Source: Vicugna vicugna (lineage: Eukaryota). From it: a DNA stretch of 27,799 bases. Below, in pieces: positions 1 through 20,060 of this stretch; the first letter of the stretch is position 1; each line of letters starts with the position of its first letter. The position numbers and the translations under genes are program-made. The stretch spans positions 713,502 to 741,300 of the forward strand of contig MU057700.1 of assembly GCA_013265495.1 (NCBI GenBank), read 5' to 3'. Under the pieces are notes generated by a model. The model had not been told where the DNA came from. It made no database searches and saw only the letters and a list, made by a program, of their open reading frames with translations.

Positions 1-300
1 CTGGATCCATCCATGTTGCTACACATGGCATTATGTTCTCATTTTTGTGGCTGAGTAGTATTCCATTGTATAAATATACCACTACTTCTTTATCCAGTCA
101 TTCATTGTGGTTTTGATTTGCATTTTCTAATAACTAGTGATGTTGAGCATCTTTTCATGTGCTTATTTGCCATTGTGTATATTCTTTGGAGAATTGTCTA
201 TTAAAATTCTTTGCCCATTTTTAAAATGGTTTTTTTTGTCTTTTTATTGAGTTGTCAGAGTTCTTTATATATTCTGAATATAAATCCCATTCCAGATATG
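1..300 (-). mobile_element. L1 3'-region fragments (ORF2 end/3'UTR), antisense; truncated by the window start
   Basis: Hallmark antisense L1 strings 'atccatccatgttgct...ggctgagtagtattccattgtat' (1-100) and 'cattgtggttttgatttgcatttt...gatgttgagcatcttttcatgtgc' (103-300). Probably two pieces of different age. Confidence 0.85.
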
Positions 301-559
301 ATTTCTTTTCTAACATTTTTGACCTGAATCATATATCTTTCTAGCTAGTTATCATTTTCAACATTACATTACTGTTATTTTTTTCTTCCATTTCCATTAC
401 TAAATGGTTGTTGCCAAAATATAATTGAAAATTTGCATCTAATTAACTAGTGATTTTCATCCTGTGTCCCAGATTAATTTATTGATATAATGGCTTATAT
501 TGATTAAATTTCCTATTGTTGAACTGGCTTTATATTTTTGGAATAGACCTGACCTGGAC

Positions 560-800
560 TTTCATTTATTTAAAAAAACTTATTGAAGGAGGGTATAGCT
601 CAAGTGGTAGAGTGCATGCTTGGCACACACAAGGTCTTGGGTTCAATCCCCTGTATGTCCTCTAAGAACAAATAATAAACCTAATTACCTCCCCTCAAAA
701 ACCCCAAAAATTTATTGAGCACTTCCTATGTTTTAGATGGAAAGTCCATTATGAATAACAGAAAGCCACTGCTTTTGTAGACAGCACATTCCAGTGGGTC
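560..800 (-). mobile_element. L2 3'-end fragment hosting the SINE at 587
   Basis: 'ttcatttatt...tttattgagcacttcctatgttttag' resembles the antisense L2 terminus (cattcattcaacaaatatttattgagcacctactatgtg). Confidence 0.4.
587..705 (+). mobile_element. Camelid tRNA-derived SINE (Vic-1 type), long-tail form
   Basis: A box 'tagctcaagtggtag', B box 'ggttcaatcc', tail 'aataaacctaattacctcccc'. TSD aaaaacttattga (574-586) / aaaaatttattga (706-718). Confidence 0.9.
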
Positions 801-2116
801 ATGATATATTATTTTTATAATATACTCTTGAACTAATATATTAGTAGGTACACTTCCATCAAAACTGTAAGAGAAGTTTTCCTATGATTTTTTGTTAATG
901 ATTTGTGGAGCTCTCCATATTTCGTGGAAAGTGTGTGACATCATGACTAATCTGCTCCTGGAAGGCTGGCTAGAATTCAGGGCAGAGATTCCCAGTCCTG
1001 TTGGCTTTTATATCATCAATGGGTTTACAAATATCATCTTCAGTTATTGGTCTAATAACCTTTTTTTAAGGATCAATTTGTTAAAATTTTACTAGTAAGC
1101 AATGTTTCCTTCTCTATATTCGGAAAATTTACTGCTGTGAAATGCTACATACGATTCTTATAATTTTACTATTCTTGCATCTTTGTGGATATATGTGTTT
1201 CCTCAGCTCTGTTGTATATTTTTGTTTTCTCACTTTCCCCCCAAATTTTGCCCATTTTATGTGACATATTTAAAAAATGCTTTTGGTTTAATTTAGTCTT
1301 TCTCGTTTATTTTGGCTTTATTTTAATTTTCTTTATTTTAGATTTTGTCCTTTTGTTTTCATGCTTTCTTGGTTTGTTATTTTTCATATTTATTTTAGCT
1401 AAATATAAATTTCATAATTATTTTTAGTCTTTAAAAATAAGTTAAAGACAAATTTTCTCTGGAACAGCTTTAGTTGTAGGTCTTAAGTTTTCATGTAATG
1501 AACTTCCCCATTGTTTCTTCCCAGGAAAGTAGTAATTTGGATGTTGGTTACTTTTCTTTGATCTAAAGCTTTTAAGTTAGAGAATGTCTCATTTTATGAG
1601 TTAGTGACTTTTTATTGAGTTTTTTTAAATTTTGGTTTTATAGGTCATAATCAGACAAAGTAGCTTGTAAAACCTCTGATTTGTAGAATTTAGTAACATT
1701 TTCTCTGAAAGCACAGCATAACATAATAATTATAAGTAGCACTTTATTTTCAGATGGTTCCAGTTTAGGGGAACCTGTTAAATGGGGAAAATAGTATCTA
1801 TGTTATATGTTTATCCCCAGTATAAGATAATATATATTTAAAATATTCCATGAAAGACATTCTTCAGAGTAAATGCCTAGTGAAATTAGCTGTCATTAGT
1901 TACCTGAACATGAGAGTTCGGTGAACTCTGCTTGGTAGTCCTTTCTTGTTGACAGAGATATATTGTCTCTTAGTAATTATGATTTGTTCTCTTTAATCAA
2001 ATTATCTTGTCATTGTAACAGTTTTTCTGTTATCTATTTGGATACATACAGATGTGACCTGAGCCTTGGTTGATGTTATCATTGATCATTACATGGTACC
2101 TGCCTTTTCCCTGTTG

Positions 2117-2128
2117 AAAGTTTAAGGC
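2117..2128 (+). repeat. Left target-site duplication of the MESD retrocopy (aaagtttaaggc)
   Basis: Identical 12-mer at 4080-4091. Preceded by 'ttg', resembling an L1 endonuclease TT/AAAA-type site. Confidence 0.9.
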
Positions 2129-4079
2129 AGCAGCGTCTGGCGGCCGGTGCTACGCGGCCAAGGTGGCGGCCTCCGGCTGGACAGGTGCCGCCGTGGTCCT
2201 TCTCTGTGTGTCTGATCTGCTGCTGCCAGCTCGGGTCTTGGCCGCCGACGGCCTCCCGAAACGCCCAGCGAGGCTACCCCGCCTCCCTGGAAGAAGAAGG
2301 ACATTCGCGACTACAGTGATGCGGACACGGACGGCTCGTCTTCTGGAACAGCGGGAGAGAGATGACGGCATAGAAGGACTCCTCCCCGAGCAGGAGACCC
2401 TCCGCACCTGTTGCCTTCTCACAGAGAGACCCCGGCAAGCCTGAGAGCATGCTGAAAATGACGAAAAAGAGCAAGATTCTCATGATGTTTGTCACTGTGT
2501 CGGGAAGCCCCACCAAGAAGGAGACAGAGAAAGTCACGAGCCTCTGTCAGGACAGTCTTTTCAACGCCACCTACGACGTCCAGAGGCTCCTCGTGGGGTC
2601 AGACCGCCCCATCGTCATGCTTCGTGATGGAAGCCGCGCCTGGGAGAGCAAGGGCTTTTTGGTCAGTCAAGACAGGTGCGCTGATGTAACTCTGGAGGGA
2701 CAGGTGTATCCTGGCAAAGGAGGAGGAAGCAGAGAAAAATAAAACCAAGCAAGAGAACGCAAAAAGAAGAAGGAGGGAGAGCCAAAGTCCCCAGCTTCAG
2801 AGGAAGACAACAGAGCTGTGAGTGAAAGAGAAGAGCTGTGAGGGGGTTGCGCTGCTCTGCGGGGGAGCGTGCGCGCGGAGATGGGGGCGGGCGTGGGGAA
2901 CCGCACACGAATGGAATTCCAGTTTCTTCTAGGAAAGGTCTGCCACGTGACCAGTTTGTGGTCAGCATAAGAATTACAGTGTAAAAGTCTTCCAGTAAGA
3001 AGACAGAGGTTTTGTAATTAACATGGGACCCTGACACATTGACGTCTACTATCAGATCACTTTAGATGGAGAGCTGACGGTGTTGCTTTTTTCCATTTAA
3101 ATGTGCGTGGGGAGGCCGCCAGTCGGACTGTGGCACGGCTCCCCTCAGTGCACCTCAGACCCAGCAGCTTGCTGCGTCCAGGTGTTCCATTTTCCCTTAA
3201 CTGAAAGGATACCAGGTTCTAATCAAACTTTAAAACTATTGATTTAATTGAATCAAGCTTTTCATGCCGCAGACATCACTACCATTACTGTGGGAGCGCC
3301 GGCATCTCAGTACACAATCAGGGTGTGTAAATCACAGATCTATGCAGAAAATGCAGAGAGCGGAAGACTACCTAACTTGGAAATCCTGAATATTCACTTT
3401 GAGTTTCTTGGACTTGAATTCGTCTCATCAGTTACAGAGAGCTCTTGGTGTTTGTCAGGTTTTATGGGGTCTGTCTGTTTAAGGGGGTCTGTCAGAAGAG
3501 GACTTTATTTAGGAAAGAGTCATGCTGGTGTTGAGAGCTGTGTGTTCCATTAAAATGTGATCATTTTAAAGGGTGTAAATCAGGCATCAGCAGAGACCCT
3601 TGCGGGGGGGGGGGTAGCAGAGGACTGGTAACCTCATTCATTTCTAAACTTTTTTTTTTTTTTGATAACGTGCCTAAATTTGTGGTGTTTTTCGTATGGT
3701 ACTATCATGATGTACTGCGTGTCTAATTTTGCTGTTCTATGTCAGAGCCCGCTCTGAGTAAGAGCTGCAGAATTTATACACAGGTGTCATTTTTAAGAAC
3801 TAAAATTACTTGTTAAAAAAACTTCCATTGTGATTTTAACAAATTAAAAATAGCACATGGTTAGGAAACATCAACACTGAAGAATAGGACAAAGCAAAAT
3901 GTCTTCACCTCCCCATTGCCACTGCCTTGCCCCAGTGGAAGCTACTGTTCATTTGTTTTAAAAAAAGTACACTTACTGGTTTATAGTGATGTGTATTTGT
4001 TTGGGCCTCATAGCACCTATTTCCGCCCTCCCCTTTTTTTAAGAGAAAATACAGTATGAGTACTTTATTTAAAAAAAAT
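2129..4079 (+). pseudogene. MESD: Processed pseudogene of MESD (LRP chaperone MESDC2): 5'UTR remnant, disrupted CDS 2163-2841, about 1.2 kb 3'UTR, short A-tail
   Basis: Stitched frames give AASGW..AVVLLCVSDLLL / PPPWKKKDIRDYSDAD / ARLLEQRERDDGIE / PSAPVAFSQRDPGKPESMLKMTKKSKILMMFVTVSGSPTKKETEKVTSLCQDSLFNATYDVQRLLVGSDRPIVMLRDGSRAWESKGFLVSQDRCADVTLEGQVYPGKGGGS / KKKKEGEPKSPASEEDNRAVSEREEL*. This matches MESD, including the C-terminal REEL ER-retention signal. It is intronless, the start codon is ATG>GTG, there are several frameshifts, and it has an A-tract (4071-4078) and a 12-bp TSD. Confidence 0.96.
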
Positions 4080-4091
4080 AAAGTTTAAGGC
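4080..4091 (+). repeat. Right target-site duplication of the MESD retrocopy (aaagtttaaggc)
   Basis: Identical to 2117-2128 and directly follows the A-tract. Confidence 0.9.
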
Positions 4092-5230
4092 TACAAATTT
4101 TTCTTAATCTGATATAAATAAGACCATGCTTACTTCCCTTTATTTGCAATTTTTGTAATATTTTGTGCATTGCATTCCTTCTTTTATAACCATTCTTTAT
4201 TGCTTTGTTTTAGATTTATTTTTTGTAAACAACAAATGGCAACATCTTGTTTTTTTAGACCAAAATGACATTCTGTATTGGATAAGAAATATATCCATTC
4301 ACATTATATATGATAATTCATGTATTTGGTTTTACATATCTGTCTTAGTTTCCTAAATACTGTGTTTGAATACACATAATACAATATGTAACATAATTTT
4401 TTTTTTTTTGGTGCCGAAACCCAGGAATGAACCTATCATAGCTTATACTACTAATTATACTTTTTCAGAATCTTTACCTTTTCTGGCATATGCATATTTT
4501 TCATTATTTCATCTTTCTTCTCTGTTAATTTGATAGTTTAGTGATTTTCAATTCTCAGAGCTACCAACCACACCTAAATATTACAACTGAACTTACATCT
4601 CCTAACATATCGGGATGACTTCACTGCTCGTCTGCTGCTCCTCTTCCCCGGCCCCTCTTGGATGACCTTAGTAAGTTTTAAGTTGTCCGTCTACCCCACT
4701 CCACACCCAGACTCCATTGTGCTAACTTGTCAGTGTATTACTGGCTCTTCTCTTACAGAAAGTCTTTTCTCTTTCAGGAAGTCTTCTCGAACATTATGTT
4801 ATACATTTCAAATCATGTTAATATCATCCATCTAGTTGTAAACATACGTCAATAACAAGATCTGTTGTTTCTCACTCTTTCCTGTCCTTTTCGCCTTCCC
4901 CTTGCTTGAGACTTGTTTGGCAGCTTGTTAGCACCTCCTTAGTGTTTTCTCTGCAGAGATTACATGGTGATTTATTGCCTGAGGCCCTGCTTATTTGAAC
5001 ACGTCTGATTTGGGGGCCTTCCATATGAAAGACAGTTTTTTTTTAATGTATAATATTCCTGGATTGAAATTCTTCTCTTGTAATCCCACGGTCTTTTTGC
5101 TTTTGCCACTGCAGAGGGGAAATCCAAAACTAGGGTACTTCTTTTTACTTTATGAGTCAGCTGTTCTTTCATCAGGAAGCTTGTAAGAGTTTACCCTTGT
5201 CATTCAGAATTATATAAACGTATGACTCAG
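4092..5230 (-). mobile_element. Old L1ME-type element, antisense (continuation after the MESD insertion)
   Basis: 'tttttcttaatctgatataaataagaccatgcttacttccctttatttgc', and 'gaaagacagtttt...gtataatattcctggattgaaattcttctc' typical of L1ME antisense. Confidence 0.5.
4397..4433 (-). pseudogene. Retroposed 3' fragment of mature tRNA-Phe(GAA): positions 52-76 with CCA, plus a 12-nt poly(A)
   Basis: Reverse complement of 4409-4433 is GGTTCATTCCTGGGTTTCGGCACCA, versus tRNA-Phe GGTTCGATCCCGGGTTTCGGCA+CCA (22/25). It is followed on the minus strand by A12 (T-run 4397-4408). Confidence 0.75.
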
Positions 5231-5239
5231 TGTGTCTTT

Positions 5240-6130
5240 TTCATTAATTCTGGGTTGGTGGTTTTCTTCTTTTATCACTTTGGATATTTCACTCCACTGT
5301 CTCCTTGCTTGAATAGATTCTGAGACTTTTATACTTGTTCCTTTGAAGGTAAGGATCACCCCCATCAACTACCCCACTCCTCCCCCGCCTTCTTAGCTTC
5401 TTTCAAGATCTTTTGTTTTGGGGTTTCTGCAATTTGATATGATATGACTAGATGTGGTTTTTGTGGGTATTTATCTAGCTTGATAGTCTCTGAGCTTCCT
5501 GGATTTGTCATTAGTTTTAGACTGTTTTTGGTTATGTACTTCAGATATTTCTTTGGCTCTGTTCCTTCTTCTTTTGGTATTCGAGTTATGCATATATTAT
5601 ACTTTTTGAGGTTGTCCCAGAATTCTTGAAAGTTCTGTTTTTTTCTTTCTTTTTCTCTTCACATTTCAGTTTGTGAAGCTCTTGTTGACCTGTTTTCAAG
5701 TTCACTGGTTCTTTCCTTGGCTCGTGTGTGACTTGTACATTTTGACTTCTAGCACTTACTTTTGATTTTTTCCTAGAATTTCTATTTCTCTACTTATATT
5801 ACTCATTTGTACTTGAATGTTGTCTAATGTTTTCATCAACACATTAGAGTTAGTTTAAACTCCTTGTCTGATAATTCCAACATTTGTGTTGTATCTGAGT
5901 CTGTTCTGATGATTTCTTCATCGTTTCTGAGTCTGTTTTTCTTGCTTTTTGGTTTGTCTTGCAGTCGTTTGTTATGAGCTGGACATGTATCTGGTAATAG
6001 AACTGAGGTAAATAAGTTTTTAGTGTGAGGATTTATGTTATTCTGGCTAGGAGTTAGGCTATATTTAATGTTGGTTGTAGCTGTAGGTGCCAGAGTCCTC
6101 ACATTCCTTTAGCATCCTTATTTTTGACTC
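5240..6130 (-). mobile_element. L1MC/L1MD-type 5' part (ORF1 region), antisense
   Basis: The minus-strand ORF 5836-6102 contains 'DSDTTQMLELSDKEFK', typical of old L1M ORF1. Flanking 'atatttcactccactgtctccttgcttg' motif. Confidence 0.75.
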
Positions 6131-6138
6131 CCCTAGAT

Positions 6139-6772
6139 CACTGGCTTTTAAACTTCAGTGTCTCATACCTGGAGGGCTTGTTAAAACACAATTCAATAAG
6201 TCCCACTCCCAGAATATCTGTATTAGTTATCTAATGCTGCACTAGAACGTACCCCGAGCTTCTTAAGACAGCAAGAAATACTTGTTATCTCATGCAGGGG
6301 CCTCATGAGGCTGTAGCCATCTGAAGCTTAACTGGGGCTGGAAGATTTGCTTCCGTGATGGCTCACTCACATGGCTGGCAAATTAGTACTGATGTTTGGA
6401 GGCCTCATTTCCTCCCCGGGTGGACTTCTCCATGGGGCTGCTGGAGTGTCCTAGTGACATAGCAGGTGGTTTTTCCTGGAGAAAGTGATCCATGAAGGGG
6501 CAGAGTGGAAGGAACAGTGTTCTTCTGTGACCTGGCCTCATTAGTCATACTCTGCTATTTCTGCAACATCCTGTTGGTCACAGAGGTCAGCCCTGTTTAG
6601 TGTGGGACAGGACTGCATGCAGTCATGAATCCTGAGAGGTGAGAATCGTTGGTGACCACCTTGGAAACTGGCTGTGATGTTAGGTGTGGAATGGGGCCTG
6701 AGGATTCTGCATTTCTGGCAGGTTCCCAGCCAACGCTGACGTTGACCTATGGACTGCACTTTGACAACACTG
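6139..6772. mobile_element. MER5A/B-type hAT-Charlie non-autonomous DNA transposon, split by an MLT1 LTR
   Basis: Left arm 'cactggcttttaaac...cctggagggcttgttaaaacaca' (6139-6218). Right arm 'ggggcctgaggattctgcatttct...cactttgacaacactg' (about 6680-6772). Confidence 0.8.
6219..6675 (-). mobile_element. MLT1F/G-type MaLR solo LTR
   Basis: Begins 'tgtattagttatctaatgctgc' (reverse complement of the MLT1 end) and contains 'ggggctggaagatttgcttcc..gatggctcactcacatggctggcaa' and 'ttggtcacagaggtcagccctg'. Confidence 0.85.
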
Positions 6773-7629
6773 TCCCAGGGACGCCCAAGAAAAGCTATTG
6801 GAATATGGGAAGGAATTATTAACATATCTATATACAGATATTTGAGTTTCAAAAATAAGAATGAAATTTCATGTATATATAAATACATAAATAGCTATGC
6901 TACGTGAGTGCTCCAATTTTAATTAGCGGGTAAGTGATCAAATATTTTGGAACCCTTAGGCTGTAGGATCATGTCCTCAATTACTTTTAATCTTGCTCTT
7001 GATTATGTCTTTGAGGCTTTATCTTAATACATCTCAAACCCTTTTCTCCTATCATGTAGTTCCAATAATTATCAAGTATTTTTTAATGCTTCCATGCCTT
7101 TTTTATGTAGTTCGCCCAGATTTATAAAGAGCACATGATTTTTGTGTTAAGACTTAGTGCTTTACCCCTCAGTAGAGCTCAACCTGATAATACAAAATAG
7201 AACTTAAACTTTTCTCCCCCCTTTGCAACTACCCATTTATGTTTCAGAGACTCTTAACATTGCTTCTATACAATTTTTTTGCAGATATTTATGTTTAAAT
7301 GTGTTTTTTGATCTGATTATAAACTCCTTGAGAGCAGGATTAAGGATTATTCTTTTATTGATCTTCATAGTCCCAGAAATTGGAAGAGTTCCTGGCACAC
7401 TGGCAGCACCTCATACACTTTTTGTGTGGATTAAGAAATTAATACACTGGCAGGTCCTTATACCAGGATTCCTCATTTTCCCACAACATATAATAGTGAC
7501 AGAAGGGATCCTATGTTGCATTTTCCCTTCAACTGTTAACTGTGAACATGGCAGGATGTTAGATCCCCAACACACTGCATGTTATCCAGTTCTGGTCACT
7601 CTGGATTGAACACAGATGTGCTGTTTCAG

Positions 7630-7755
7630 AGGCTAGTGTCATTCGAGTATGTGACTGTGGGCTTCACCCAGGAGAAGTGGCAGTACCTGGACCCTGCTTA
7701 GAGGGCCCTGTACAGGGACGTGATGCTGGAGAACTATAGCTACCTCCTCTCGTGG
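7630..7755 (+). pseudogene. KRAB-A exon, disabled
   Basis: Acceptor tttcag (ends 7629), donor gtaag (7756). Translates [42 protein letters not shown]. In-frame TAG at 7699-7701; 126 nt instead of the usual 127. Confidence 0.95.
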
Positions 7756-8032
7756 GTAAGGAATTGCATAATTTGTAACTTCAAGTAACATTTGTTTCCT
7801 TTTTAGCTGCTGATATAGGTGATTTATCTGTAGAGATTAATGATTTATAGATTTGAAATTCAGGGGTCAGAGGTGATGGATCCCTTTCAGGGACTACAGA
7901 GAACACTGTTTCCTCTTCCCCAGTGAAATGTTCAAGTGGACCTACCTTCATGCAGGCATAGCTTTGTTCTCCTTTAAGGGTCCTGAACTTCAGGCCACCT
8001 GTTCCAAGTCCTATGCAATTTCCCATTTACAG

Positions 8033-8128
8033 GGTATTGTGTTACCAAACCGGAGGTGATTTTCAAATTGGAGCAAAGAGAAGAGCCATGGGTATTAGAG
8101 GAAGAGTCCCAAAGCCAGAGCCGCCCAG
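8033..8128 (+). pseudogene. KRAB-B exon (96 nt), splice donor mutated
   Basis: Acceptor tttacag (ends 8032). Translates (G)YCVTKPEVIFKLEQREEPWVLEEESQSQSRP. The donor reads gggagt instead of gtgagt (8129-8134). Confidence 0.93.
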
Positions 8129-8794
8129 GGGAGTTAGTGAGCGCAGAGGTTACTGTAACCTGGGGAGGAACTGGATCCCAGAGAGTTAGTTCAGATGTTG
8201 GCATCTTTGAGATTTTTCAGGAATTTTTTTGTAGACTTAGTAGAACTTTGTAAGTGATTGAGTGAATAATTGGCTTTTATGCCTCAGATGCGTAATCACA
8301 CTGGCAGATAACAGCTAAACGACTTCTTGGGTTTTCTTCCAAAAATCCAATTCTTGCCTCTCTGTTTAAATATTTGATTATTATTTCCACATTAATTTCA
8401 GCTGTCTTTTTAAAATCTTATACTATGTATTCATTCAATAAGTATTAATTTGACATCTACTGTATGCCAGGTTTGTCATGTGTGCTGAGGATACACCTGC
8501 TAACAATATGATGCCTGCATTTTAGTGGCAAAAGAGAATGAAATGTGCTGTTTATGAAAGTGTGTTCAGGAAAGAGCCTCTTTGAGGTCAATACTATAAT
8601 TAACATAGATGTGAATGGAGTGAGACAGTAGATTTTGAATATTCCAGCCAGATGGCATGAACCTGAGGCCAGGAGTGTGTGTGCCAGGCTGGATAGAGGT
8701 CAGTGAGTAACGGCGAGTGTATTAGACATGGTGTCAGAGAGGTAGTTGGGGCCAGGTTGTGGCCTTGCTGGCTGTTGAAAGCTCCTTAATTCTA

Positions 8795-8934
8795 GTAAGG
8801 GTTGTTTTGTTTTGTTTTGTTTTGTTGTTGTTTTGTTGTTGTTTTTTTAATTTTTAATGGAGGTGGTGGGGATTGAAGACAGGACCTTGTGCATGCTAAG
8901 CATGCACTCTAAAACTGAGCTATTTTCCTCCCCC
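8795..8934 (-). mobile_element. Camelid tRNA-derived SINE, short form with (GTTTT)n/(GTT)n tail
   Basis: Antisense 'ggggattgaa..caggaccttgtgcatgctaagcatgcactct..actgagcta'. TSD aaagctccttaattcta (8778-8794) / aaaactccttaattcta (8935-8951). Confidence 0.92.
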
Positions 8935-8999
8935 AAAACTCCTTAATTCTAATTAACATGGAATCATTGGAAGGTTTTGAGCAAAGGGGCACATGTTCT

Positions 9000-9098
9000 T
9001 TTTTTTTTTTTTTTAAATGGGGGTACGGGGGATTGAATCCAGGCCCCACCTCGTGCATGCTAAGTGTGCCCTCTACTACTGAGCTATTCCCACCCCTC
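9000..9098 (-). mobile_element. Camelid tRNA-derived SINE, short form
   Basis: Poly-T followed by 'gggggattgaatccagg..cctcgtgcatgctaag..ctctactactgagcta'. TSD aaggggcacatgttct (8984-8999) / aaggagcacatattct (9099-9114). Confidence 0.92.
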
Positions 9099-9504
9099 AA
9101 GGAGCACATATTCTAATCAGATTCAGGTATATCTCTGGTTGCTGTACAGTAGAAACGCTGACAGAATTGTGGGGTGGAGGGAAGAATAAAGTCAGGAGGG
9201 CAGTTAGAAGTTCTCCATGTGAGAGATTGTGGTGCTTATACTGGCTTGAAAATAGTAAAAGTAAAGTGGCAAAGTTGGATTCTTGATACATTTTGAAGTT
9301 GTAGCCAAGACAGGATTTGCTGTTAGATTGGATTATGGGTACAGGAAAAAGAGAATAAAACTCAAAAATTTTTTCCCAGAGGCACTGGATACCTGGTAAT
9401 ACCTGTAACTCAGTTGGGGGAACTTGAGGGGAAGCAGTTTTGGAAGGAAATAAGTGAGGACATGGGTAATTTAAACAAATATTGTTTGTTTTAAACAATA
9501 TTTA

Positions 9505-9982
9505 CAGATGATCCCCAACTTACAATGATTCAACTCATGATTTTTCAACTTAATTGGTGTGAAGGCAATACGCATTCACTAGAAACCATACTTTGAATTT
9601 TGCTCTTTTCCCTGGGCCAGAGATCTGGTGTAGGATCCTCTCTGGTGCTGCTGGGCAGGGGCAGCTGCAGCCCCCAGTCAGCCACATGCCCACTGGGGTG
9701 GGCAGCCATTCTGGGCCCAGACAGCCGTTCTGCTTTTCACTTCAATACAGTATTCAATAAATGACATGAGATATTCAACACTTTATTGTAAAATAGGCTT
9801 TGCAGTAGATGATTTGCCCAACTGGAGGCTAATGTAAGTGTTCTGAGTACATTTGAGGTAGGTGAGGCTAGGCTATGATGTTCAGTAGGTTAGGTGTATT
9901 ATATGCACTTTCAGCTGGTGATATTTTCAACTTACAAAGGGTTTTGGGGGACATAACCACATTGTAAGTTGAGGAAGATCTG
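9505..9982. mobile_element. Tigger5/MER47-type TcMar non-autonomous DNA transposon, full length
   Basis: TIRs cagatgatccccaacttacaatg ... cattgtaagttgaggaagatctg, with TA duplicated at 9503-9504 and 9983-9984. Internal 'aggctaggctatgatgttcagtaggttaggtgtatt'. Confidence 0.92.
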
Positions 9983-10199
9983 TAGTAGTAATGTTTATTC
10001 TGTTGGGTAGAAAAACAAAAGTAAATTATTGAAAAATGATAGCATATAAATTATTTAACCAATTGATTAGACTCATGTTCTAATATCCTTGTATTGTTTA
10101 GAATAAGTGTTGTTCAGTTAAATGTGAAGTTCAGATTTAATGAGTAAATGTCAAAAGTAATGTGTAATTTCTAAACTTTTGAAGAGAATAAAATGGAAA

Positions 10200-10450
10200 A
10201 GAAAAAAATATCTTGGATCAGATTTAAAAAAGACAATGAAAGAAAGGGGGAAAACAAATAAAACTTAGAACAAGTGGAAACTGTAAGTGCAGTGGAGGAA
10301 ACCAACCTAGATATTTTAGTAATTACAATACATTCAAAAGGACTAAACCTTCTTGTTAAAAGGCAGATATTGTGAATACGGATTTTTCCAAATATAGGTA
10401 TACAGTGTTTGAAAAGTACATATGAAATATAAAAAGAAAGAATGGGCTAC
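10200..10450 (+). mobile_element. Old L1M fragment (start of ORF2/endonuclease region), sense
   Basis: 'agtaattacaatacattcaaaaggactaaaccttcttgttaaaaggcagatattg' resembles the IITLNVNGLN.P.KR.RL coding region. Confidence 0.55.
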
Positions 10451-10502
10451 ATTCCTTTACTGGAATATAAAAAGGAATAATGATATACTTCAAACATTAG
10501 GG

Positions 10503-10930
10503 TAATGTGTCAATTTGTGGTATACAGCACAATGCTTCAGTCATGCATGAACATACATATATTCGTTTTCATATTATTTTTCACCACAGGTTACTGCAAA
10601 GTATTGAATATAGTTCCCTGTGCTATAGAGTATGAACTTGTTGTCCATCTATTTTATATATATTAGTTAATATCTGTTAATCTCGAACTCCCAATTTATC
10701 CCTTCCCACCTCCTTCCCCCACCTGGTAGCCATAAGTTTGTTTTCTATGTCTGAGTCTGTTTCTGTTTTGTAGACAAATTCATTTGTCTTTTTTTTCTTT
10801 AGATTCCACATATAACTGATATCATATGGTATTTTTCTGGTTTGAAAATTTTCTTTTGTATTAGCTTGGTTTCTTTTTGGTTCTTGTGACTCTATTGTAT
10901 GCTTTTGATTTGTGGTTACCTTGTCATAAT
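10503..10930 (-). mobile_element. Young camelid L1 3'UTR fused to an L1 inter-ORF segment
   Basis: 10503-10835 is the antisense 3'UTR ('aatgtgtcaatttgtggtatacagcac', 'gattccacatataactgatatcatatggtatt'). 10836-10925 is inter-ORF-like ('ggtaaccacaaatcaaaagcatacaatagagtcacaagaacc' on the minus strand). Confidence 0.8.
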
Positions 10931-11312
10931 TTCTTATAATTAAAAAGTAAAATAAAAATTTCCCTTGGACAAACAAAGAGAATATTGATTTATATTTTTA
11001 AATTGAGTGAAACTAATTTTATCTTTCAGTTTCCACATGGGTGATTTGGTCTCATTTATAAATCTAAGAAACATGAGACTGTTGTGATCTTATTTTAATA
11101 TATTTTGAAATGTTTTGCTACTTTATCACCCTAGCAATTATTCCAACACTACTCATCACTTATGTTCAACAGTGCTAAAATACACTAAAATATAAGAAAA
11201 TAGAAGGATGATAGAATTTCTTAGAAGGACAATGAAAGTGAAGTAAATCTTCACCATTTATATCATCCTTCAGTTTTCTTAGTGGGTTCCTTGGAATACT
11301 GCATCAGTTGTG

Positions 11313-11358
11313 CACTTCTTTCATACCTTCATGACAAGGACAAGGTATGAAAGAAGTG
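11313..11358. repeat. Perfect 17-bp inverted repeat with a 12-nt spacer
   Basis: cacttctttcatacctt (11313-11329) is the exact reverse complement of aaggtatgaaagaagtg (11342-11358). Confidence 0.97.
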
Positions 11359-12074
11359 TGGAGACACCTTGTATGTTCTTTCTTTCTTTCTTTTTCTATC
11401 TTTTAGCTTTTATTGACTATGATTGAGTCTCAGAATTTTTATTTTCTGCCTTTAACTGCAAAGAGCAGAAAATTGGCATAAGAAGAATTTCACAATTATT
11501 AGACGAATCAGTTGAGTGTAAAGAGATAGGTAGAAGCACTCTGGACTCTAATGACGATGGATAATTGATTGTATAAGTGAAGTTCTGTAAGTTTTAGATG
11601 ATTATATGCTAGAGAAATAAAGATGTGCATCTGACGCTGTTATAAGAATAGCCTGAATATGTACTTCATTTTGACACTACTATTCATTGTGAATCCCAAT
11701 AAGAATGCAAATATAGCCTAGGTAATAGAGTTTTCCTTTTATCTGTGATGGAAGTGAGTGCTTTCTGGAATTTAATTTGGTGGTGTTATGTGGAATAGAA
11801 GAGAGAGGGATGAGGTTGTAGGCTTGTATGTTAGTGAGGCTCTTGCTTCAGGTGAATTTTCCAGATCTAATTGCTCCTTCATATCTCCTCTCACCATCAT
11901 TGTCTATTAATTTTCCTTGTGATTCTACTTACTATTTGTTGAGTTGTTGGGCTGATTCTGTTCCTGTGAGGTTCCCCATCCCAGGATTAAGCAGTCATTC
12001 AAACATTTTAAAAATTTATTTGTTGTGCTTATTTCAAATTCTCTGCTCTATCTACTTTTGAATGTCACATTTAA

Positions 12075-12172
12075 AAAAACTGAGATGTTAATTGACATAT
12101 AACATTTGAGTGTCAGGTATACAACGTAAGGTTCTGTATTGGCATATATTGCAAAATGCTGACCACAATAAA
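12075..12172 (-). mobile_element. Short L1MA-type 3' end
   Basis: 'tgagatgttaattgacatataacatt...tcaggtatacaac...atatattgcaaaatg..gaccacaataa'. Confidence 0.65.
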
Positions 12173-12376
12173 CATTTTTGAAGTGCCAGGTTATCATGTT
12201 TTGTTGCCAGATTCCCCATTTTCCAGTACTGCAAGTTATTTATTTATTTTTCAAACCTAGAGGAGCAAGGCAGCATGCCCTTGGGATTACTTTCACAGCA
12301 AAAGACTGGGCTAGAATAAGACATGAGGATGTCTTCTTTTCATAAGAAATATGTTAACATTTATAAACTATGGTAA

Positions 12377-12565
<189 letters not shown>

Positions 12566-12706
12566 TAATGAGTTTGAATTCTGATTTAGAATTAATTCTT
12601 AGTATTAGAAACTCCTTTGTAAGGACGCTTGACAAATTTAATGCACATGGGAGATTATTCCTCTGTACAAAGCACAAGAATTCTCATTCCAGAAAGAAAA
12701 ATTTTT

Positions 12707-12839
12707 AAATTTTTTAATTTTTTGGTGGGGACAGGTAATTAGGTTTGCTTGTTTATTTTTAGAGGAGGTACTGGGGATTGGACCCAGGACCTTGTGGATG
12801 CTAAGCATGTGCTCTACCAGTTGAGCTGTACCCTTTCTC
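12707..12839 (-). mobile_element. Camelid tRNA-derived SINE (long-tail form) inserted into the former coding exon
   Basis: 'ggtaattaggttt...agaggaggtactggggattggacccaggaccttgtggatgctaagcatgtgctctaccagttgagctgtaccc'. TSD ccagaaagaaaaattttt (12689-12706) / ccagagagaaatttttt (12840-12856). Confidence 0.93.
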
Positions 12840-12889
12840 CCAGAGAGAAATTTTTTGAGTGTGATAGAAATAGAAAAACCATCAGTTAA

Positions 12890-13195
<306 letters not shown>

Positions 13196-13230
13196 TGAGT
13201 GTGCTGACAGAACAGTCTCAGCAAGAAGTC

Positions 13231-13347
13231 ACTCTTTCAGCGATTTTGTAAAGGAGAGTCTATTGTATGTATTTACGTGCAATGTAATGTGTGTGTGCAG
13301 TCAAACTGTAATAATTCTACCTAATAAAACTGAAAAGGAAAAAAAAA
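13231..13347 (+). mobile_element. Short 5'-truncated polyadenylated retroposed fragment (L1 3' end or mRNA 3' end, source unidentified)
   Basis: Non-ZNF sequence ending in AATAAA (13323-13328) and an A-rich tail (13333-13347). Weak TSD aagaagtc (13223-13230) / aaaaagcc (13343-13350). Confidence 0.5.
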
Positions 13348-15180
13348 GCCTTCACCTTCTTGTTGGACTCATTGTGTAGCAGAACAGCCTGCTATGAGGT
13401 TGGGGGGCCCAGTAAATATGAGAAGTCTTTTGCCCAGAAGTGACATTTCACTGAATAGCAAAAAATTGATAATTTGATAACTTTATCAGTATTTTGAAGA
13501 TGTTACAAAGTCCAAAAGAATTTAAAAAGTGAAAAAAAAGAGGCCTTTTCTTTTGCAGAATATGTGTAAGTATGCTATATAAGAGAAACTGCATGATTTG
13601 TTTATTGGAAACCAACATTATAGTAGGAAGTATATATTTGCTTAATAACATAAAATTTTTATTTCATAATTTTAATATGAAATACATAAGGTGTCCCATG
13701 CTTAGTACCTATGTGATTTTTTTGGTTTTAATTGAAATTCTTATTGAGATAATTGTAAGTTGTAAGATGCAGTTGTAAGAAGTGATACAGAGAGACCCTG
13801 TATACCCAGTTTCCTCCAGTGGTAACATCTTACAGAACTGTAGTTCAGATATCAGCCGGGATAATGACATTATTGATAGAATCCACTGATAAGTACAGTT
13901 TCTCAATTTTATTTATACTCTTTTATGTGTATGTATATTTAGCTCTGTGCAATTTTATCTCATGGGCAGGTTCATGTATGCACCACTGACTGTGGTCTCC
14001 ACCGCCACAGTCAGGATGCGGAACAGTTCCCTCACCATAAGGATTCTGTGTGTGCTCTGTTATAACCACATCCACTGCCCTTCAGTATCTCCCTTACTCT
14101 TTCTGCCAACTGATAATGCGTTCTACATTTGTAAAATATTGTCATTAAAATGTTATATGAATGGAATTATATAATAGGTAACCTCTTCTAATTGATTTTT
14201 TTCACAGTATAATTTCCTGAAGAGTCATTCATCCACATTTTTGTGTTTATCAACAGTTTATTCTTTTTTATTGCTTTTTTAATGCTATTCCAAGGTGTGG
14301 ATGTACCAAAGTTAGTCCACCCATTCACCTGGGCTGTTTCCAGTTTTGGGCTAATGAATAAAACTACTATGAATGTTTGTGTAGAATTGTTGTTTTTGTT
14401 TGTTTGTTTGTTTGTTTTATGAATAGAAGTTTTTACTTCTTCGGGATAAATGCCAAAGAGGATAGTTGCTACGTGGTATGGTAGTTGCACGTTCAGTTTT
14501 TCATGAATCTGACAAACTGTTTCTTTCTAGAGTGCCTGTGTTATTTTATGTTCCCACTTGCAGTATATGAGTGACCCACTTTTTCTACATCCTCACCAGC
14601 AATTGGTTTGTCACTATTTAAAAACTTTTTTTTATTTTGGCCATTCTGATTGGTGTGCAGTGTAGGTCACTGTGGTTTTAACCTGCACCTCTCTGAGGAT
14701 AATGTTGAACATCTTTCCATGTGCATATTTGCCATCTATATATTGTCTTCAAAGAAATGTCTATTCCTGTCTTTTGCCCATTTTTAAGTTGGATTATATT
14801 CTGACTATTGAATTTTGCGTGTTCTTTATATTTTCTAGATTCTAGTCTTTTGTCAGACATGTGTCTGCAAATGCTGTTTCTTAGTCTGTAGCTTGTCTTT
14901 TCATTCTCTTTACATGGCCTTTCACAGAATGAACATTTTTAATTTTTATGGGGTCTGGTTTATTGATAGGAATTGTATTAAATCTGAGTATCAATCTGGG
15001 AAGAATTGATCTATTTTTTAATTATATTGGGTTTTCTAATCTATGAACATGGTGCATCTCTTTATTTATTTAGGTCTTTGATTTCTTTCATCAGTGTTTT
15101 ATAATTTTTGGCATGCATATCCTGTACATGTTTTATTAAGTGTATACCTAGGTATTTAATTTTCTTGGGAGTTATTGTAA

Positions 15181-15308
15181 TTTATTTATTTATTAAAAAA
15201 TTTAGGGGGGTAATTGGGTTTATTTGTTTATAATGGAAATACTGGGGACTGAACCCAGGACCTTATGCATGCTATGCAGGCACTCTTCCACTGAGCTATA
15301 CCCTCCTT
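15181..15308 (-). mobile_element. Camelid tRNA-derived SINE (long-tail form)
   Basis: 'atactggggactgaacccaggaccttatgcatgctatgcaggcactcttccactgagctataccctcc'. Degenerate TSD agttattgtaa (15170-15180) / agctattctaa (15311-15321). Confidence 0.9.
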
Positions 15309-15739
15309 ACAGCTATTCTAAATGGTATGTGTTTTAAGTTTTGGTTTCTGAATGTTTATTGTTGATTTATAGAAATGTGGTCGATTTTTCTTTGTTTTTC
15401 TTGTACTCTGATCTTGCTGAACTCACATTATTAATAGGAATTCTCTCTCACTCTCTCTCTCTTTTGGTAGATTTCTTTGGATTTTGTTTGCAGACTATCC
15501 TGTTATTTGCAAATGAGATAATTTTATTCCTTCCTTTCTACTCTGTAGGCTTTTTCCCCCATTTGCTCATTGTAGTGGCTAGAACTTCCAATACTATGCT
15601 GACTGAGAGTGGTGAGAGTAGACATCTTTGCTTGTTCCTGATCTTAGGGGAAAAGCATTCATTCTTTCCACATTAAGTATGCTTTTAGCTGTAGATTTTT
15701 AAAATAGATTCTCTTTATCAGGTTGGGGTAATTTCATTC

Positions 15740-15900
15740 TCTTTTGGGCATCCCCAAGACCTCCCCTAGGTTTGGTGACTGGCTTGGAGGACTAATAGGA
15801 CTCAGCAAATCCAGGTGCTACCAGCCCCAGTCCAGCCTTGCAAGCAGGCCTTCCTAAGGATATTAGTCTCAGGCTGGCTATGTTAACACTTTTCTGTACA
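15740..15900 (-). mobile_element. MER21B-like LTR with both termini and a large internal deletion
   Basis: One end 'tccccaagacctcccctaggtttggtgactggcttggaggacta'. Other end 'ccttgcaagcaggccttcctaaggatattagtctcaggctggctatgttaacacttttctgtaca' (reverse complement of TGTGCAGAAAAGAGTTAACATAGC...). Confidence 0.8.
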
Positions 15901-16839
15901 CTTTCTATTCCTGACTTGCCCAGTGTTTGCCCAGGTGTTGGATTTTGTTAAATGGTTTTCTGCATTTTATATGATCCTATGATTTTTCTTCATTACCCTA
16001 TTTATATGATGGATTGATTACATTATGAGCTTTGTAATGTTTAACCAACCTTACAATTTGGAATAAGTCCCTCTTGGTCATGGTGTATACTTTTTATACA
16101 TTGTTGGATTTGGCTCACTACTATCATGTTATAGATTTCTGTGTGTAAGTTCATGAGAGGTGCTGGTCTGTAGTTTTCTTTTTCTGCACTATATCAGGCT
16201 AATATTAATCTCACAGAATGAATTAAAGTGTTCTTCTTCTGTTTTTTGGCAGAGAATTCCAACTGGTGTTAATTATCCTGTCCTGTTCAGTCTGCGGGAA
16301 TGAATGAACCTACATGAACTTGCTTCTGTTGCTAGGTTGGGGGTGACAACACCGGGCCTGAATTACTATCTAATTTTGCACGTGGGGATATAAGACGCCG
16401 CGCCCTGTTGTTCTGTCAGTCCTATGGCCCAAACCAGTTTGCCTTCTTGCTACCTTTGAGAGTTTTCCTTTGGTTGTTTCTTGGAGTTTATAATTGTACT
16501 TAGAAATGAGTGTATGCCATCTTGCCTGGACTGTAAATAGTGTTTTTATAGTTTAAAAACACAATGTATACTTAAAATATTTCTGAGATTTAAATTACTG
16601 TATAAAAATATTTGTATTTGTACTCTTGGCATATACAAATAGGTATGACTGTTTTTTACTAAACTCTTCAATTTAAAAAAAATCAGTCTGTGTTTTTGTA
16701 AATATTCCAATTAATTTAGCATCAGTCTCATAGAATAATAAAGTGTGCAAAGGTTAGGTACAAAATTATTAATAGGAATTTGTCCTATTAATTTATCCTT
16801 TTGAAGGAATAAATCCTATGGACTTGTACTTCTGCCAGA

Positions 16840-18990
16840 AACTAGAAAACTGTAAGTATATGGAAGAAGCAGAAAACTAGCTGGCTGTGCATGTGAAGGT
16901 GAAGAGCCATGGAGCTGGGCGAGCAATACATGCTGAGAGAAGAACAATTTCTGAGAAGCTCTAAGCTGAAACATTTCCATAGTTTGGGAAGAGTTGGAAA
17001 GTCATTCCAGTTCTCACCAGCCAATGCTGAGAGATCTCTGAATACATGAATATTTAGTAGATACCACAAATAGATCATGCCTCTTTTATGGATTTCTAGA
17101 GCTGTGGAGGAAGGGCTGTCTAGATCACCTCTACAAAAGCTTAAACGCTGAAAGAATTAAACTATCTATAAATGATTGTTTAGAGGCCAAGTTAAAAAAA
17201 AGCATTAATAATAAACCCCAGCATTCAACAATATAATCACAATGACTGGCATGCAGTATGATATTACTGAGATTACAAGAAAACTGTGAACTAAACCACA
17301 AGAATAATCAGCCAATAGAAGCAGACTCATAACTGACAGAAAAGGACTTTAAAATAGTTATCAGTCACTTAAAATATATTCAAGTTTGTAATGAGGGTGA
17401 TTGAAGATATTAAAAAGATCCAGTGGAATTCCAGAGATGAAAAATACATTGGATGAGATTACACTGCAGAAAAGAGGTTCAATGAGCTTGAAGGCAGCAA
17501 TAGAAACTCCTAAAATAAAGCACTAAGAAGAAAGAAGTCAAGGGCTAAAACAGAGCTTTAGTGATCTGTGGGACAATAGAATGTGGTCTAACACACAGGT
17601 AAATGGAGTCCCAGGACAGGGATAGGGTGAGGGAGAAAAAATATTTTAAGAACTAATGGCCTCTCAACATCATTGGTTACTAGAGAAATGCAAATCAAAA
17701 CTACAATGAAGCATGGCCTCACACCAGTAAGAATGGCCATCATTAAAAAGTCTGCAAATAGTAAATGCTGGAGAGGGTGTGGAGAAAAAGGTACCCTCCT
17801 ACACTGTAGGTGGGAATGTTAATTGGTGCAGCCACTGTGGAGGACAGTATGGAGGTTCCTTAAAAACCTAAAAATAGACTTATAATCCATCAATCCCACT
17901 CCTGGGCATATATCTGGAGAAAACTATAATTCAAAAAGACACATGCACCCCAGTGTTCACCACAGCACTATTTACAACAGCCAAGACATGGAAACAACCT
18001 AAATATCCATTAACAGATGAATGGATAAACATGTGGTATATATTCAATGGAATATTACTCAGCCATAAAAAAGAATAAAGTGTCATTTGCAGCAACATGG
18101 ATGGATCTGTTGTCATTAAGTGAAGTAAGCCAGAAAGAGAAAGAAAAATACCTTCTGATATCACTTATTGGTGGAATCTTAAAAAAAAAGGAGACACAAA
18201 GGAACTTATTTATAAAACAGAAACAGACTCACAGACATATGGTTAGCAGGAGGGGAAGGGGGTGGGAAGGGACAAATTGGAGGCTTGAAATTTGCAGATA
18301 TTAACTACTGTATATAAAATAGATAAACAGCAAGTTTATACTGTATAGCACAGGGAAACACATTCAACATCTGGTAGTAACCTATAATGAAAAAGTATAT
18401 GAAAAGGAATATATGTATGTATATGTATGACTCAGGCATTATGCTGCACACCAGAAATTGACACAATATTGTAAATTGATTATACTTCAATTTTTAAAAA
18501 GTACAAAAAACAAAAAGCAATGGCCAAAAGCTTTCCAATTTTGATGAAAACTATACACCTGTAGATCTAAGTAGGTCAGTGATATCCTAAGCAGGATAAA
18601 CCAAAAGAAAACCTCCACAAGAGACAGCATGATCAAATTGCTGAAAACCAGTCATAAGGAATAAAAACTTAAAAGCAGTTTGAGAAAACAGACACAGAAC
18701 AAAGATAACAGACGTTCATCTTCAGCAAGCAGAAGACAATAATGCTGAAAGAAAAAAGGTCAACCTAGAATTCTCTACTCAGCAAAAACATCCTTGAAAA
18801 AATGAAGCTGACATGCTTTTTCACATAAACAAAATTTGAGGAAGATTGGAAACAGACCTGTATTATATGACATGTAAAAGGAAGTTTTTCAGAAATATGA
18901 TAAATGATACCAGATGGAAACTTGAATCTACACAACTATCAAATGCTGGAAAAGGTAAATAAATTGATAAATGTAATTTTTTAAAAAGTC
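16840..18990 (+). mobile_element. Old L1M 5'UTR/ORF1 region, sense, interrupted by a young L1
   Basis: A-rich ORF1 relics 'cagagctttagtgatctgtgggacaata', 'ttccaattttgatgaaaactata', 'tcaacctagaattctctactcagcaaaa'. Confidence 0.8.
17662..18511 (+). mobile_element. 5'-truncated young camelid L1 (ORF2 C-terminus, 3'UTR, A-tail)
   Basis: ORF2 end 'MEYYSAIKKN...FAATWMDL' (ORF 18047-18304), 3' end 'caccagaaattgacacaatattgtaaattgattatacttcaat'. TSD aagaactaatggcc (17648-17661) / aaaaagcaatggcc (18512-18525). Confidence 0.95.
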
Positions 18991-19554
18991 TTTCAAAAGT
19001 AATTTGTTCTCTATTTTTATAATTTCATCATTTCAAGAATGTTACATGATTGGAATCATACAATATGTAACATTTTGGGACTGACTTTTTTTTCATTCAG
19101 CATGATTCTCTGGTGAGTCATCAGGTTGCTGTGTGTCATTAGGTCAGTCTCTCCTGTCATTGCTGAGTAGTATCTGTGGTATGGATGTACTGCAGTTTAA
19201 CCCCTCAGCTGTTGAACAACATCTGTTTTTCTTCAGTCTTTGGTGACTGTGAATAAGGTTGCTATAAGCATTTGTATATAGATTTTTGTGTGAATATAAC
19301 TTTTAATTTCTCTGGGATAAATGCCCAGGAGTACAACGCCTTAGTTGTTTTGTAGTTGTATATTTAATTTTTAAAGAAACTGCCAGACTGTTTTCCAGAA
19401 TAACTATCATTTTACATTACCATCAGCAATGTAGGACTGACCTACTTTCTCTATATCCACACCAGCATAAAGCGTTGTCTCTGCTTTCTTTTTCTGGTTA
19501 AATTATTTTTAAACTTACTAGTGATACTGCATTCCTAATAGAAACTATTTCCTT

Positions 19555-20060
19555 TTTTTTAAATAATAAATTTTTTGAGATATAATTAATATATCATAAA
19601 GCTTACCACTTTAAAGTGTTCAGTTCAGTGGTTTTTAGTATATTCATGGGGTTATGCAATCATTACCACTATCTAATTTTAGAACGTTTTCATTGCTCTA
19701 AAAAGAAACTACTAAGTAGCACTCATTTCAGATTCCCTCCTTTGCCGTCACCTCTGGCAACCGCATCCACCTTCTGCCTCTGTAGATTTCCCTATTGTGG
19801 ACATTTCATACAAATGGAAATACACAACATGTGGCCTTTTGTGTCTGCCTTCTTTCACTAAGCATGTTTTCAAGGTTCATTTTGTAGCATGTGTCAGTAC
19901 TTCATTACTTTTTATAGCTGAATAATATTTCATCGTAAGGATGTACTACATCTTATTTATCAATTCATTGGTTTGTGGACATTTGGATTGTTTCCACTTT
20001 TATGGCTATTACCAGTAATTTTGCTGTGAATAACAGTGTACACGTTTTTGTGTGGACTTA
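19555..20060 (-). mobile_element. L1MB-type 3' end nested in the older L1
   Basis: 'ttttgagatataattaatatatcataaagcttaccactttaaagtgttcagttcagtggtttttagtatattca...cattaccactatctaattttagaac'. Confidence 0.85.

Follow-up and report, generated by a model that had tools for sequence, protein, structure and literature searches.

A 25-nt retrocopy of a mature tRNA-Phe 3′ end in Vicugna vicugna, with a recurrent base change at position 58 that may be a scar of m1A58

Results

The window, by which we mean the whole analysed stretch of 27,799 nucleotides of Vicugna vicugna DNA, contains a short insertion that reads on the minus strand as the 3′ end of tRNA-Phe(GAA) followed by CCA and twelve adenines (Table 1). 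Specifically, the minus strand carries GGTTCATTCCTGGGTTTCGGCA-CCA, the whole 25-mer being GGTTCATTCCTGGGTTTCGGCACCA; viewed on the plus strand, the tail is a T13 run, the complement of A76 included. The 25-mer is single in the window with up to three mismatches permitted, and none of 100 dinucleotide shuffles of the window gave any 25-mer match. We compared the insert with the tRNA-Phe genes of the 2.03-Gb assembly that holds the window contig. Seven loci end in GGTTCGATCCCGGGTTTCGGCA, three intact loci of an isodecoder with A at position 57 end in GGTTCAATCCCGGGTTTCGGCA (which begins GGTTCAATCC), and CCA is missing after all 13 tRNA-Phe genes and pseudogenes. Because the 3′ ends of the genes match and the genes lack CCA, the window sequence represents processed tRNA-Phe, positions 52 to 76. 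With CCA counted, it is identical to the tRNA-Phe genes at 22 of 25 positions and to the A57 isodecoder at 23 of 25. Reading of the sequence and this comparison bear out the initial annotation, which had described the tRNA-Phe 3′ end, the CCA and the A12 tail, had placed the end of similarity at position 52 (upstream, the insert is preceded by tatgata where the tRNA has GGTCCCT) and had listed the three mismatches G57A, A58T and C62T. No tRNA gene was detected at the site by ARAGORN (0 genes) or with Rfam RF00005 (E up to 10), since the fragment is only 25 nt long. Three other assignments were rejected: a functional tRNA gene, as a complete cloverleaf with an anticodon arm is absent; a tRNA-derived SINE, as only positions 52 to 76 are present and sister copies share nothing beyond the tRNA part; and a tailless retropseudogene, whose anatomy is the opposite.

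The insert and its tail, together 37 bp, are enclosed by a target-site duplication (TSD) whose two copies in the window agree at 8 of 11 positions (aagctatgata and aaattatgtta, minus orientation). Set beside an endonuclease target of the TT/AAAA type, it starts with AA(G/A)TT, and the TSDs of sister copies mostly start with AA, AAA or AAAA, as judged from individual starts. The insert displays three features of a LINE-1 (L1) retrocopy made by target-primed reverse transcription: a tail after the RNA 3′ end, a TSD within the range of ~7-20 bp and a feature of processed RNA, the CCA. Together, CCA, poly(A), TSD and 5′ truncation mark it as a copy of the 3′ end of mature tRNA-Phe made by retroposition of the L1 type. 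Elsewhere in the window, sequence comparison makes a processed pseudogene of MESD probable: one open frame (2374-2742) covers profile positions 35-145 of 155 in the Pfam family Mesd (PF10185, E 3e-42), and window positions 2584-4070 match another contig (C10346) at 85%, with an A-run then at ~4066-4073.

Table 1. Features of the window discussed in the text
Feature	Window position	Strand	Basis or remark
MESD processed pseudogene (probable)	2118-4078	+	Pfam Mesd match
Inverted segmental duplication	2922-5915		pairs with 36175-39196 of the same contig (C677); 93.7% identical over the 3-kb locus fetched
TSD 3′ copy, aaattatgtta (minus orientation)	4389-4399	-	first three A merge with the tail; paralog: (t)aattatgata(ca)
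A12 tail, directly after CCA	4397-4408	-	sequence reading
tRNA-Phe(GAA) retrocopy, tRNA positions 52-76	4409-4433	-	comparison with the genome's own tRNA-Phe genes
Non-templated CCA	4409-4411	-	post-transcriptional, absent from genes
T-loop and 3′ T-stem strand, 3′ acceptor strand, discriminator A73	4412-4433	-	tRNA alignment
Base 62 = T, CpG transition younger than the segmental duplication	4423	-	paralog L002 has C62
Base 58 = T (gene: A), proposed m1A58 scar	4427	-	window copy and paralog; 22 of 29 Phe/Asn copies non-A
TSD 5′ copy, aagctatgata (minus orientation)	4434-4444	-	paralog: aagttatgata(ta)
Predicted target motif before duplication (TSD in single copy)			AA(G/A)TTATGATA
tRNA-Ala-like SINE	8844-8911, 9008-9075, 12749-12816, 15220-15305		Rfam tRNA match at 15234-15305 (-)
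Repeat of ~420 bp	10506-10924		at least 38 places in the genome, 83-89% identity

A paralog of the locus (L002) lies ~680 kb away on the same contig, in inverted orientation, and carries the same insertion, GGTTCATTCCCGGGTTTTGGCA-CCA, with an A-rich tail longer than that in the window. The two loci are 93.7% identical over 3,039 aligned columns, which is all of the locus fetched. In the paralog the TSD copies are AGTTATGATA and AATTATGATA, matching at 9 of 10 positions by eye, and a script delimited them as TTATGATATA and TTATGATACA, a 10-mer with one mismatch. The TSD had earlier been called weak, and that describes the 8 of 11 matches in the window; with the closer agreement in the paralog, however, the 11-bp duplication flanking the window insert is real. 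The two inserts disagree where the window alone has T62 and where the paralog alone has T69, both CpG sites, and T58 is present in both. Since both paralogs hold the same insertion, it is older than the segmental duplication, and since C62 is intact in the paralog, the change C62>T postdates the duplication. Judged from the two copies, the ancestral insert thus read GGTTCATTCCCGGGTTTCGGCA, which is the A57 isodecoder with the single change A58>T. With C62>T a later CpG change and A57 accounted for by an isodecoder of this genome, A58>T remains the sole change at or near insertion. The insertion is carried by the contigs of all four closely related organisms, with a T-run of 13, 12 or 11 (one or two T fewer in two of them), and among these contigs no empty site, that is, no joint skipping the insertion, was seen. 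The four carriers and the 6.3% divergence of the paralogs together indicate an old, fixed insertion. A DNA search with 12 kb, run for the extent of the duplication, returned mostly a high-copy 420-bp repeat, and the paralog was not among the matches listed. Taken by itself, the window locus shows no sign of function; it is an old, neutral insertion and an ordinary member of the known small-RNA retropseudogenes made by L1.

A genome scan for related fragments, with the bases at position 58 tabulated, had been proposed as the check on the reading of A58>T. We scanned the assembly for tRNA-Phe 3′ ends with two patterns that were blind to positions 52-58, using the reversed pattern as a control. 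Positions 63-76 followed by A7 gave 157 matches against 261 for the control at three mismatches, 11 of them at no more than one mismatch and 26 at no more than two; because the matches are at or below the control, the three-mismatch level is noise. Positions 59-76 followed by AAA, a pattern taken from a natural copy, gave 50 matches against 33 for the control, 21 of them at no more than two mismatches. Flanks were read for all 50 matches of this search and for the best 30 of the 157 of the other. Many of the Phe copies inserted independently, in sequence contexts unrelated to one another, and more than 20 sister copies have TSDs of their own; in many copies these measure 8-17 bp and have an A-rich start, a LINE-1 signature. 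A script found A-initial TSDs of 10-17 bp in L013, L034, L036, L044, L052, L058, L088, L092 and L102. Where there is microhomology, the automatic finder runs on into the tRNA sequence (for example in L049 and L055), so that boundaries near positions 57-60 were read by eye; those of L037, L040, L055, L072 and L096 are ambiguous in that region. The tails are plain A-runs or microsatellites of the tail type, and no L1 or SINE 3′ sequence stands between CCA and tail in the copies examined. Some copies have a few additional bases between their 5′ TSD and the tRNA sequence (an A-rich 12-mer in L037, CACA in L088), which resemble filler or the product of a second template switch.

To call base 58, we applied an objective rule that demands 7 or more A among the 10 nt that follow CCA, together with a tRNA-like base at no fewer than three of the four positions 54-57, and that tolerates CpG transitions and either isodecoder. 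With the paralog dropped, 21 of 53 distinct anchor matches passed, and of these 11 have T at position 58, four have G, one has C and five have A; one of the G58 calls, that of L044, stems from a register shift caused by a 1-nt deletion, the base being T by eye, and this copy was omitted from the pooled count. All four G58 calls of the objective Phe set have G at aligned position 57. A G58 next to G57 would fit a dislocation-type error, the numbers being small. The full-length tRNA-Phe genes and pseudogenes that we found have A58 without exception. A further change, C56>A beside G57, recurs in the Phe retrocopies L034 and L044 of the objective set and also in L040, L046 and L106, which read TTAGG or TTAGT at this place; it is a non-CpG change, and to our knowledge position 56 is not a known modified tRNA position.

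The same search design applied to tRNA-Asn gave 49 matches against 20 for the control. We fetched 9 of the 10 at no more than two mismatches and 8 of the 39 at three mismatches, the latter picked by eye on positions 59-76 only; under the objective rule 9 of these 17 passed, six with T at position 58, one with G and two with A. When Phe and Asn are pooled (L044 omitted), position 58 is non-A, mostly T, in 22 of 29 copies. Non-CpG sites within positions 59-76 are changed in 26 of 424 cases (Fisher p 2e-18 for position 58 against them), a background rate that is held down by the mismatch limit of the search, and T54 and T55 together in 8 of 58 (Fisher p 1.6e-8). At other A sites a change was seen once in 76. 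Position 58 is altered more often even than the CpG sites, where 40-55% of copies show a change. A58 is retained in 7 of 30 copies. Position 58 shows the excess of changes expected of the reverse-transcription signature of m1A58, and the scan thereby gave the outcome that the initial annotation had expected, far above other non-CpG positions. T58 occurs together with G57 and with A57, with varied 5′ ends and flanks and in two tRNAs, which excludes descent of the copies from one master. The copy numbers are uneven, at least 21 for Phe and ~10 for Asn, with 0-2 convincing poly(A) copies each for Lys-TTT, Glu-CTC, Asp-GTC and Thr-AGT; for Thr, 1 of 11 fetched regions (L135) looked real. The reading of T58 as a modification scar makes no prediction of such Phe and Asn dominance.

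A generic motif of T-arm, CCA and A8, aimed at all tRNAs, gave 97 matches against 31 for its control. Most of these were a tRNA-Ala-like SINE that swamped the search, so that the motif served as a control only. In ~70 copies of this SINE, which share the same TTCAATCC context, A58 is kept in 69 (counted by eye). All eight SINE copies that were fetched have full-length tRNA-like heads, CCA or TCCA, a poly(A) or SINE tail, and TSDs. Because these copies keep A58, neither decay of the DNA nor copying by L1 as such yields T58. The absence of the scar from SINE copies, whose T-arm is intact, counts against the m1A58 reading unless one assumes that the SINE RNA was unmodified or that modified templates were left unfinished.

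The 5′ ends of the Phe copies cluster at positions 52-57 and 59-64, whatever base stands at 58. The longest copy, L018, reaches position 44, and none extends to the anticodon arm. In at least four Phe copies the TSD abuts position 59 (L049, L081 and L086 by script, L069 by eye), as would be expected of arrest at m1A58; an 18-nt fragment serving as the template would give the same outcome. In the initial annotation the enzyme misread m1A58 and stopped 6 nt later. Copies with A58 stop at the same places, so that the misreading does not explain the 5′ stop. An abort of reverse transcription in the T-arm may account for it, as may a template already shortened to a fragment of the tRF-3 type.

Discussion

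Based on these results, we consider it likely that a mature, CCA-tailed tRNA-Phe was copied by LINE-1 through target-primed reverse transcription and that T58 arose from m1A58. The template would have been a mature cytosolic tRNA-Phe with its CCA tail, probably the A57 isodecoder, copied in ancestral germ cells. LINE-1, through its ORF2p, is the enzyme to which the TSD and the tail point, and we infer m1A to be the cause of T58. Priming would have occurred on an A-tract that continued from the CCA, either oligo(A) on the tRNA or its fragment or the poly(A) of another RNA combined with a template switch; as to the origin of the A-tract, a template switch fits as well as the oligoadenylated decay intermediate named in the initial annotation. 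Positions 76 to 59 would have been copied faithfully, after which dA would have been put opposite the Watson-Crick-blocked m1A58, yielding T in the sense strand, and synthesis or joining would have ended at position 52. The 37-bp product, flanked by its 11-bp TSD, would then have been fixed, and after a later segmental duplication of the insert and its surroundings each copy would have gained one CpG transition. The direction of the change at position 58 fits the known behaviour of m1A. According to Hauenschild et al. (2015, PMC4787781), m1A followed by U leads to efficient dATP misincorporation, and the OTTR report (PMC12140624) describes a non-LTR retroelement reverse transcriptase that misincorporates at tRNA positions 9, 26 and 58 and is impeded by m1A.

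Among the alternatives, the one that fares best keeps the scar and disputes the template. It holds that the LINE-1 enzyme switched from the poly(A) of an L1, SINE or messenger RNA to the CCA end of the tRNA, producing a chimera of the U6/L1 type with poly(A) as its only 3′ part, or that the template was already a tRF-3-like fragment that set the 5′ end. We regard this as a serious possibility, if somewhat short of an even one. The plain A-runs and tail-type microsatellites behind the copies are what any L1 event leaves, the clustering of 5′ ends is indifferent to base 58, and L1 chimeras with small RNAs, tRNA pieces among them, are documented in a recent preprint (bioRxiv 10.1101/2025.02.02.635956). 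Set against this, the copies examined lack any L1 or SINE 3′ sequence ahead of the tail, and the published tRNA/L1 chimeras have another anatomy, being mostly antisense 5′ halves (positions 1-37). Fragments of the classes tRF-3a and tRF-3b measure 18 and 22 nt. The window insert, in contrast, is 25 nt long, and starts across the genome fall at positions 52-57 and 59-64.

A second alternative accepts the retrocopy and takes A58>T to be an ordinary mutation after insertion, or a base inherited from a T58 source gene or master copy. One locus alone cannot tell these readings apart, the copies are old enough for 40-55% of CpG sites to have changed, and A58>T predates the duplication of the window locus. 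Across copies, however, this account is very unlikely. A change at 1 of 76 other A sites stands against 22 of 29 at A58, and ~70 SINE copies with the same local context have A in 69. A source gene with T58 is at odds with the A58 of every full-length tRNA-Phe gene and pseudogene found, and a master copy with the occurrence of T58 beside either base at 57, at varied 5′ ends and in two tRNAs; a 25-nt fragment, moreover, has no promoter with which to act as one.

The weakest alternative, a primer-binding site (PBS) of an endogenous retrovirus using tRNA-Phe and lying just downstream of a 5′ LTR, had been raised in the initial annotation; the plus strand does read TGG and then the complement of the tRNA-Phe 3′ end, but a T13 run and no LTR end lies directly upstream, window positions 1-20000 hold no LTR-like pair of direct repeats and only SINE and L1 pieces, the match is 25 nt and not 18, the TSD encloses the 37-bp unit only, more than 20 sister copies have unrelated flanks and their own TSDs, and the sites that do read as PBS in this genome differ and have no A-tail, so that this reading can be set aside with near certainty. 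The sites in question are tRNA-Lys3 3′ ends followed by CCA and CTT (16 matches) and tRNA-Glu 3′ ends followed by CCA and GAT (6 matches), without A-tails, and they are most likely the PBS of two families of endogenous retroviruses. The classical limit of the PBS to 18 nt is itself set by m1A58. The insert resembles a retroviral PBS in being the complement of a tRNA 3′ end with CCA, and departs from it in its match beyond 18 nt, the missing LTR and its poly(A) and TSD architecture.

Retropseudogenes of small RNAs made by L1 are known, among them the classic retropseudogenes of tRNAs in which CCA is encoded; one from mouse, a CCA-bearing pseudo-tRNA-Phe gene, was reportedly described in Nature in 1982. 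With these the copies described here share the conversion of processed RNA to DNA, the CCA, the A-rich tail, the flanking direct repeats and the 5′ truncation. Unlike them, the copies here are 18-25 nt long, have 5′ ends that cluster in the T-arm, carry a recurrent change at position 58, the site of m1A, and are, in this genome, strongly biased to Phe and Asn. Tailless retropseudogenes, said to have been described by Schmitz in 2004, are also derived from tRNA. According to Noll et al. (2015, PMC5322556), they are 5′-complete, 3′-truncated in loops and devoid of an oligo(A) tail. On that description they are likewise L1-dependent and flanked by TSDs, and the class here, which is 3′-complete with CCA and an A-tail and truncated at the 5′ side, is their mirror image. 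The tRNA/LINE-1 chimeras of the preprint (bioRxiv 10.1101/2025.02.02.635956) contain roughly one half of a tRNA (positions 1-37), which in most cases runs antisense to the attached L1 segment; there too the L1 reverse transcriptase copies tRNA pieces in one insertion with a TSD, whereas here the sense 3′ end with CCA is found with only poly(A) attached. The m1A signature of RNA sequencing, as described in PMC4787781 and PMC12140624, likewise consists of arrest beside m1A and misincorporation at it, with dATP favoured when U follows, as it does in tRNA-Phe. The difference is that the signature in those reports comes from cDNA libraries made in vitro, while here it would have been fixed in the germline by an endogenous retrotransposon enzyme. 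What is new here is the recurrent base-58 scar together with the tight 5′ ends. A full-text literature search, with older subscription literature outside its reach, found no paper on a modification scar or a base-58 scar in genomic tRNA retrocopies.

More tentatively, and with the case not quite evenly balanced in its favour, we suggest that these copies may form a distinct, undescribed class: ultra-short LINE-1 retrocopies of mature tRNA 3′ ends (approximately positions 52-76 with CCA and oligo(A)) that would act as a natural record of mutational profiling. In such a class, base 58 (T more often than G, G more often than C, and A in ~1/4) and the 5′ ends at positions 52-59 would report the m1A58 status that germline tRNAs had millions of years ago and the lesion bypass of ORF2p in vivo, and the Phe and Asn bias would reflect selective entry of oligoadenylated tRNA fragments into L1 particles. 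The copies flag an RNA species that reaches the L1 machinery, namely CCA-tailed tRNA 3′ ends joined to A-tracts, here mainly those of Phe and Asn. A simple comparative test is available across mammals, in which base 58 is read in tRNA fragments that carry CCA and poly(A). For past populations, neither the status of m1A58 nor the errors made by the LINE-1 reverse transcriptase are open to direct measurement. If the scar is true, ordinary genome sequence would keep a readout of m1A58 in ancestral germ cells and would preserve the spectrum of errors that the LINE-1 enzyme makes in vivo when it copies a modified template.
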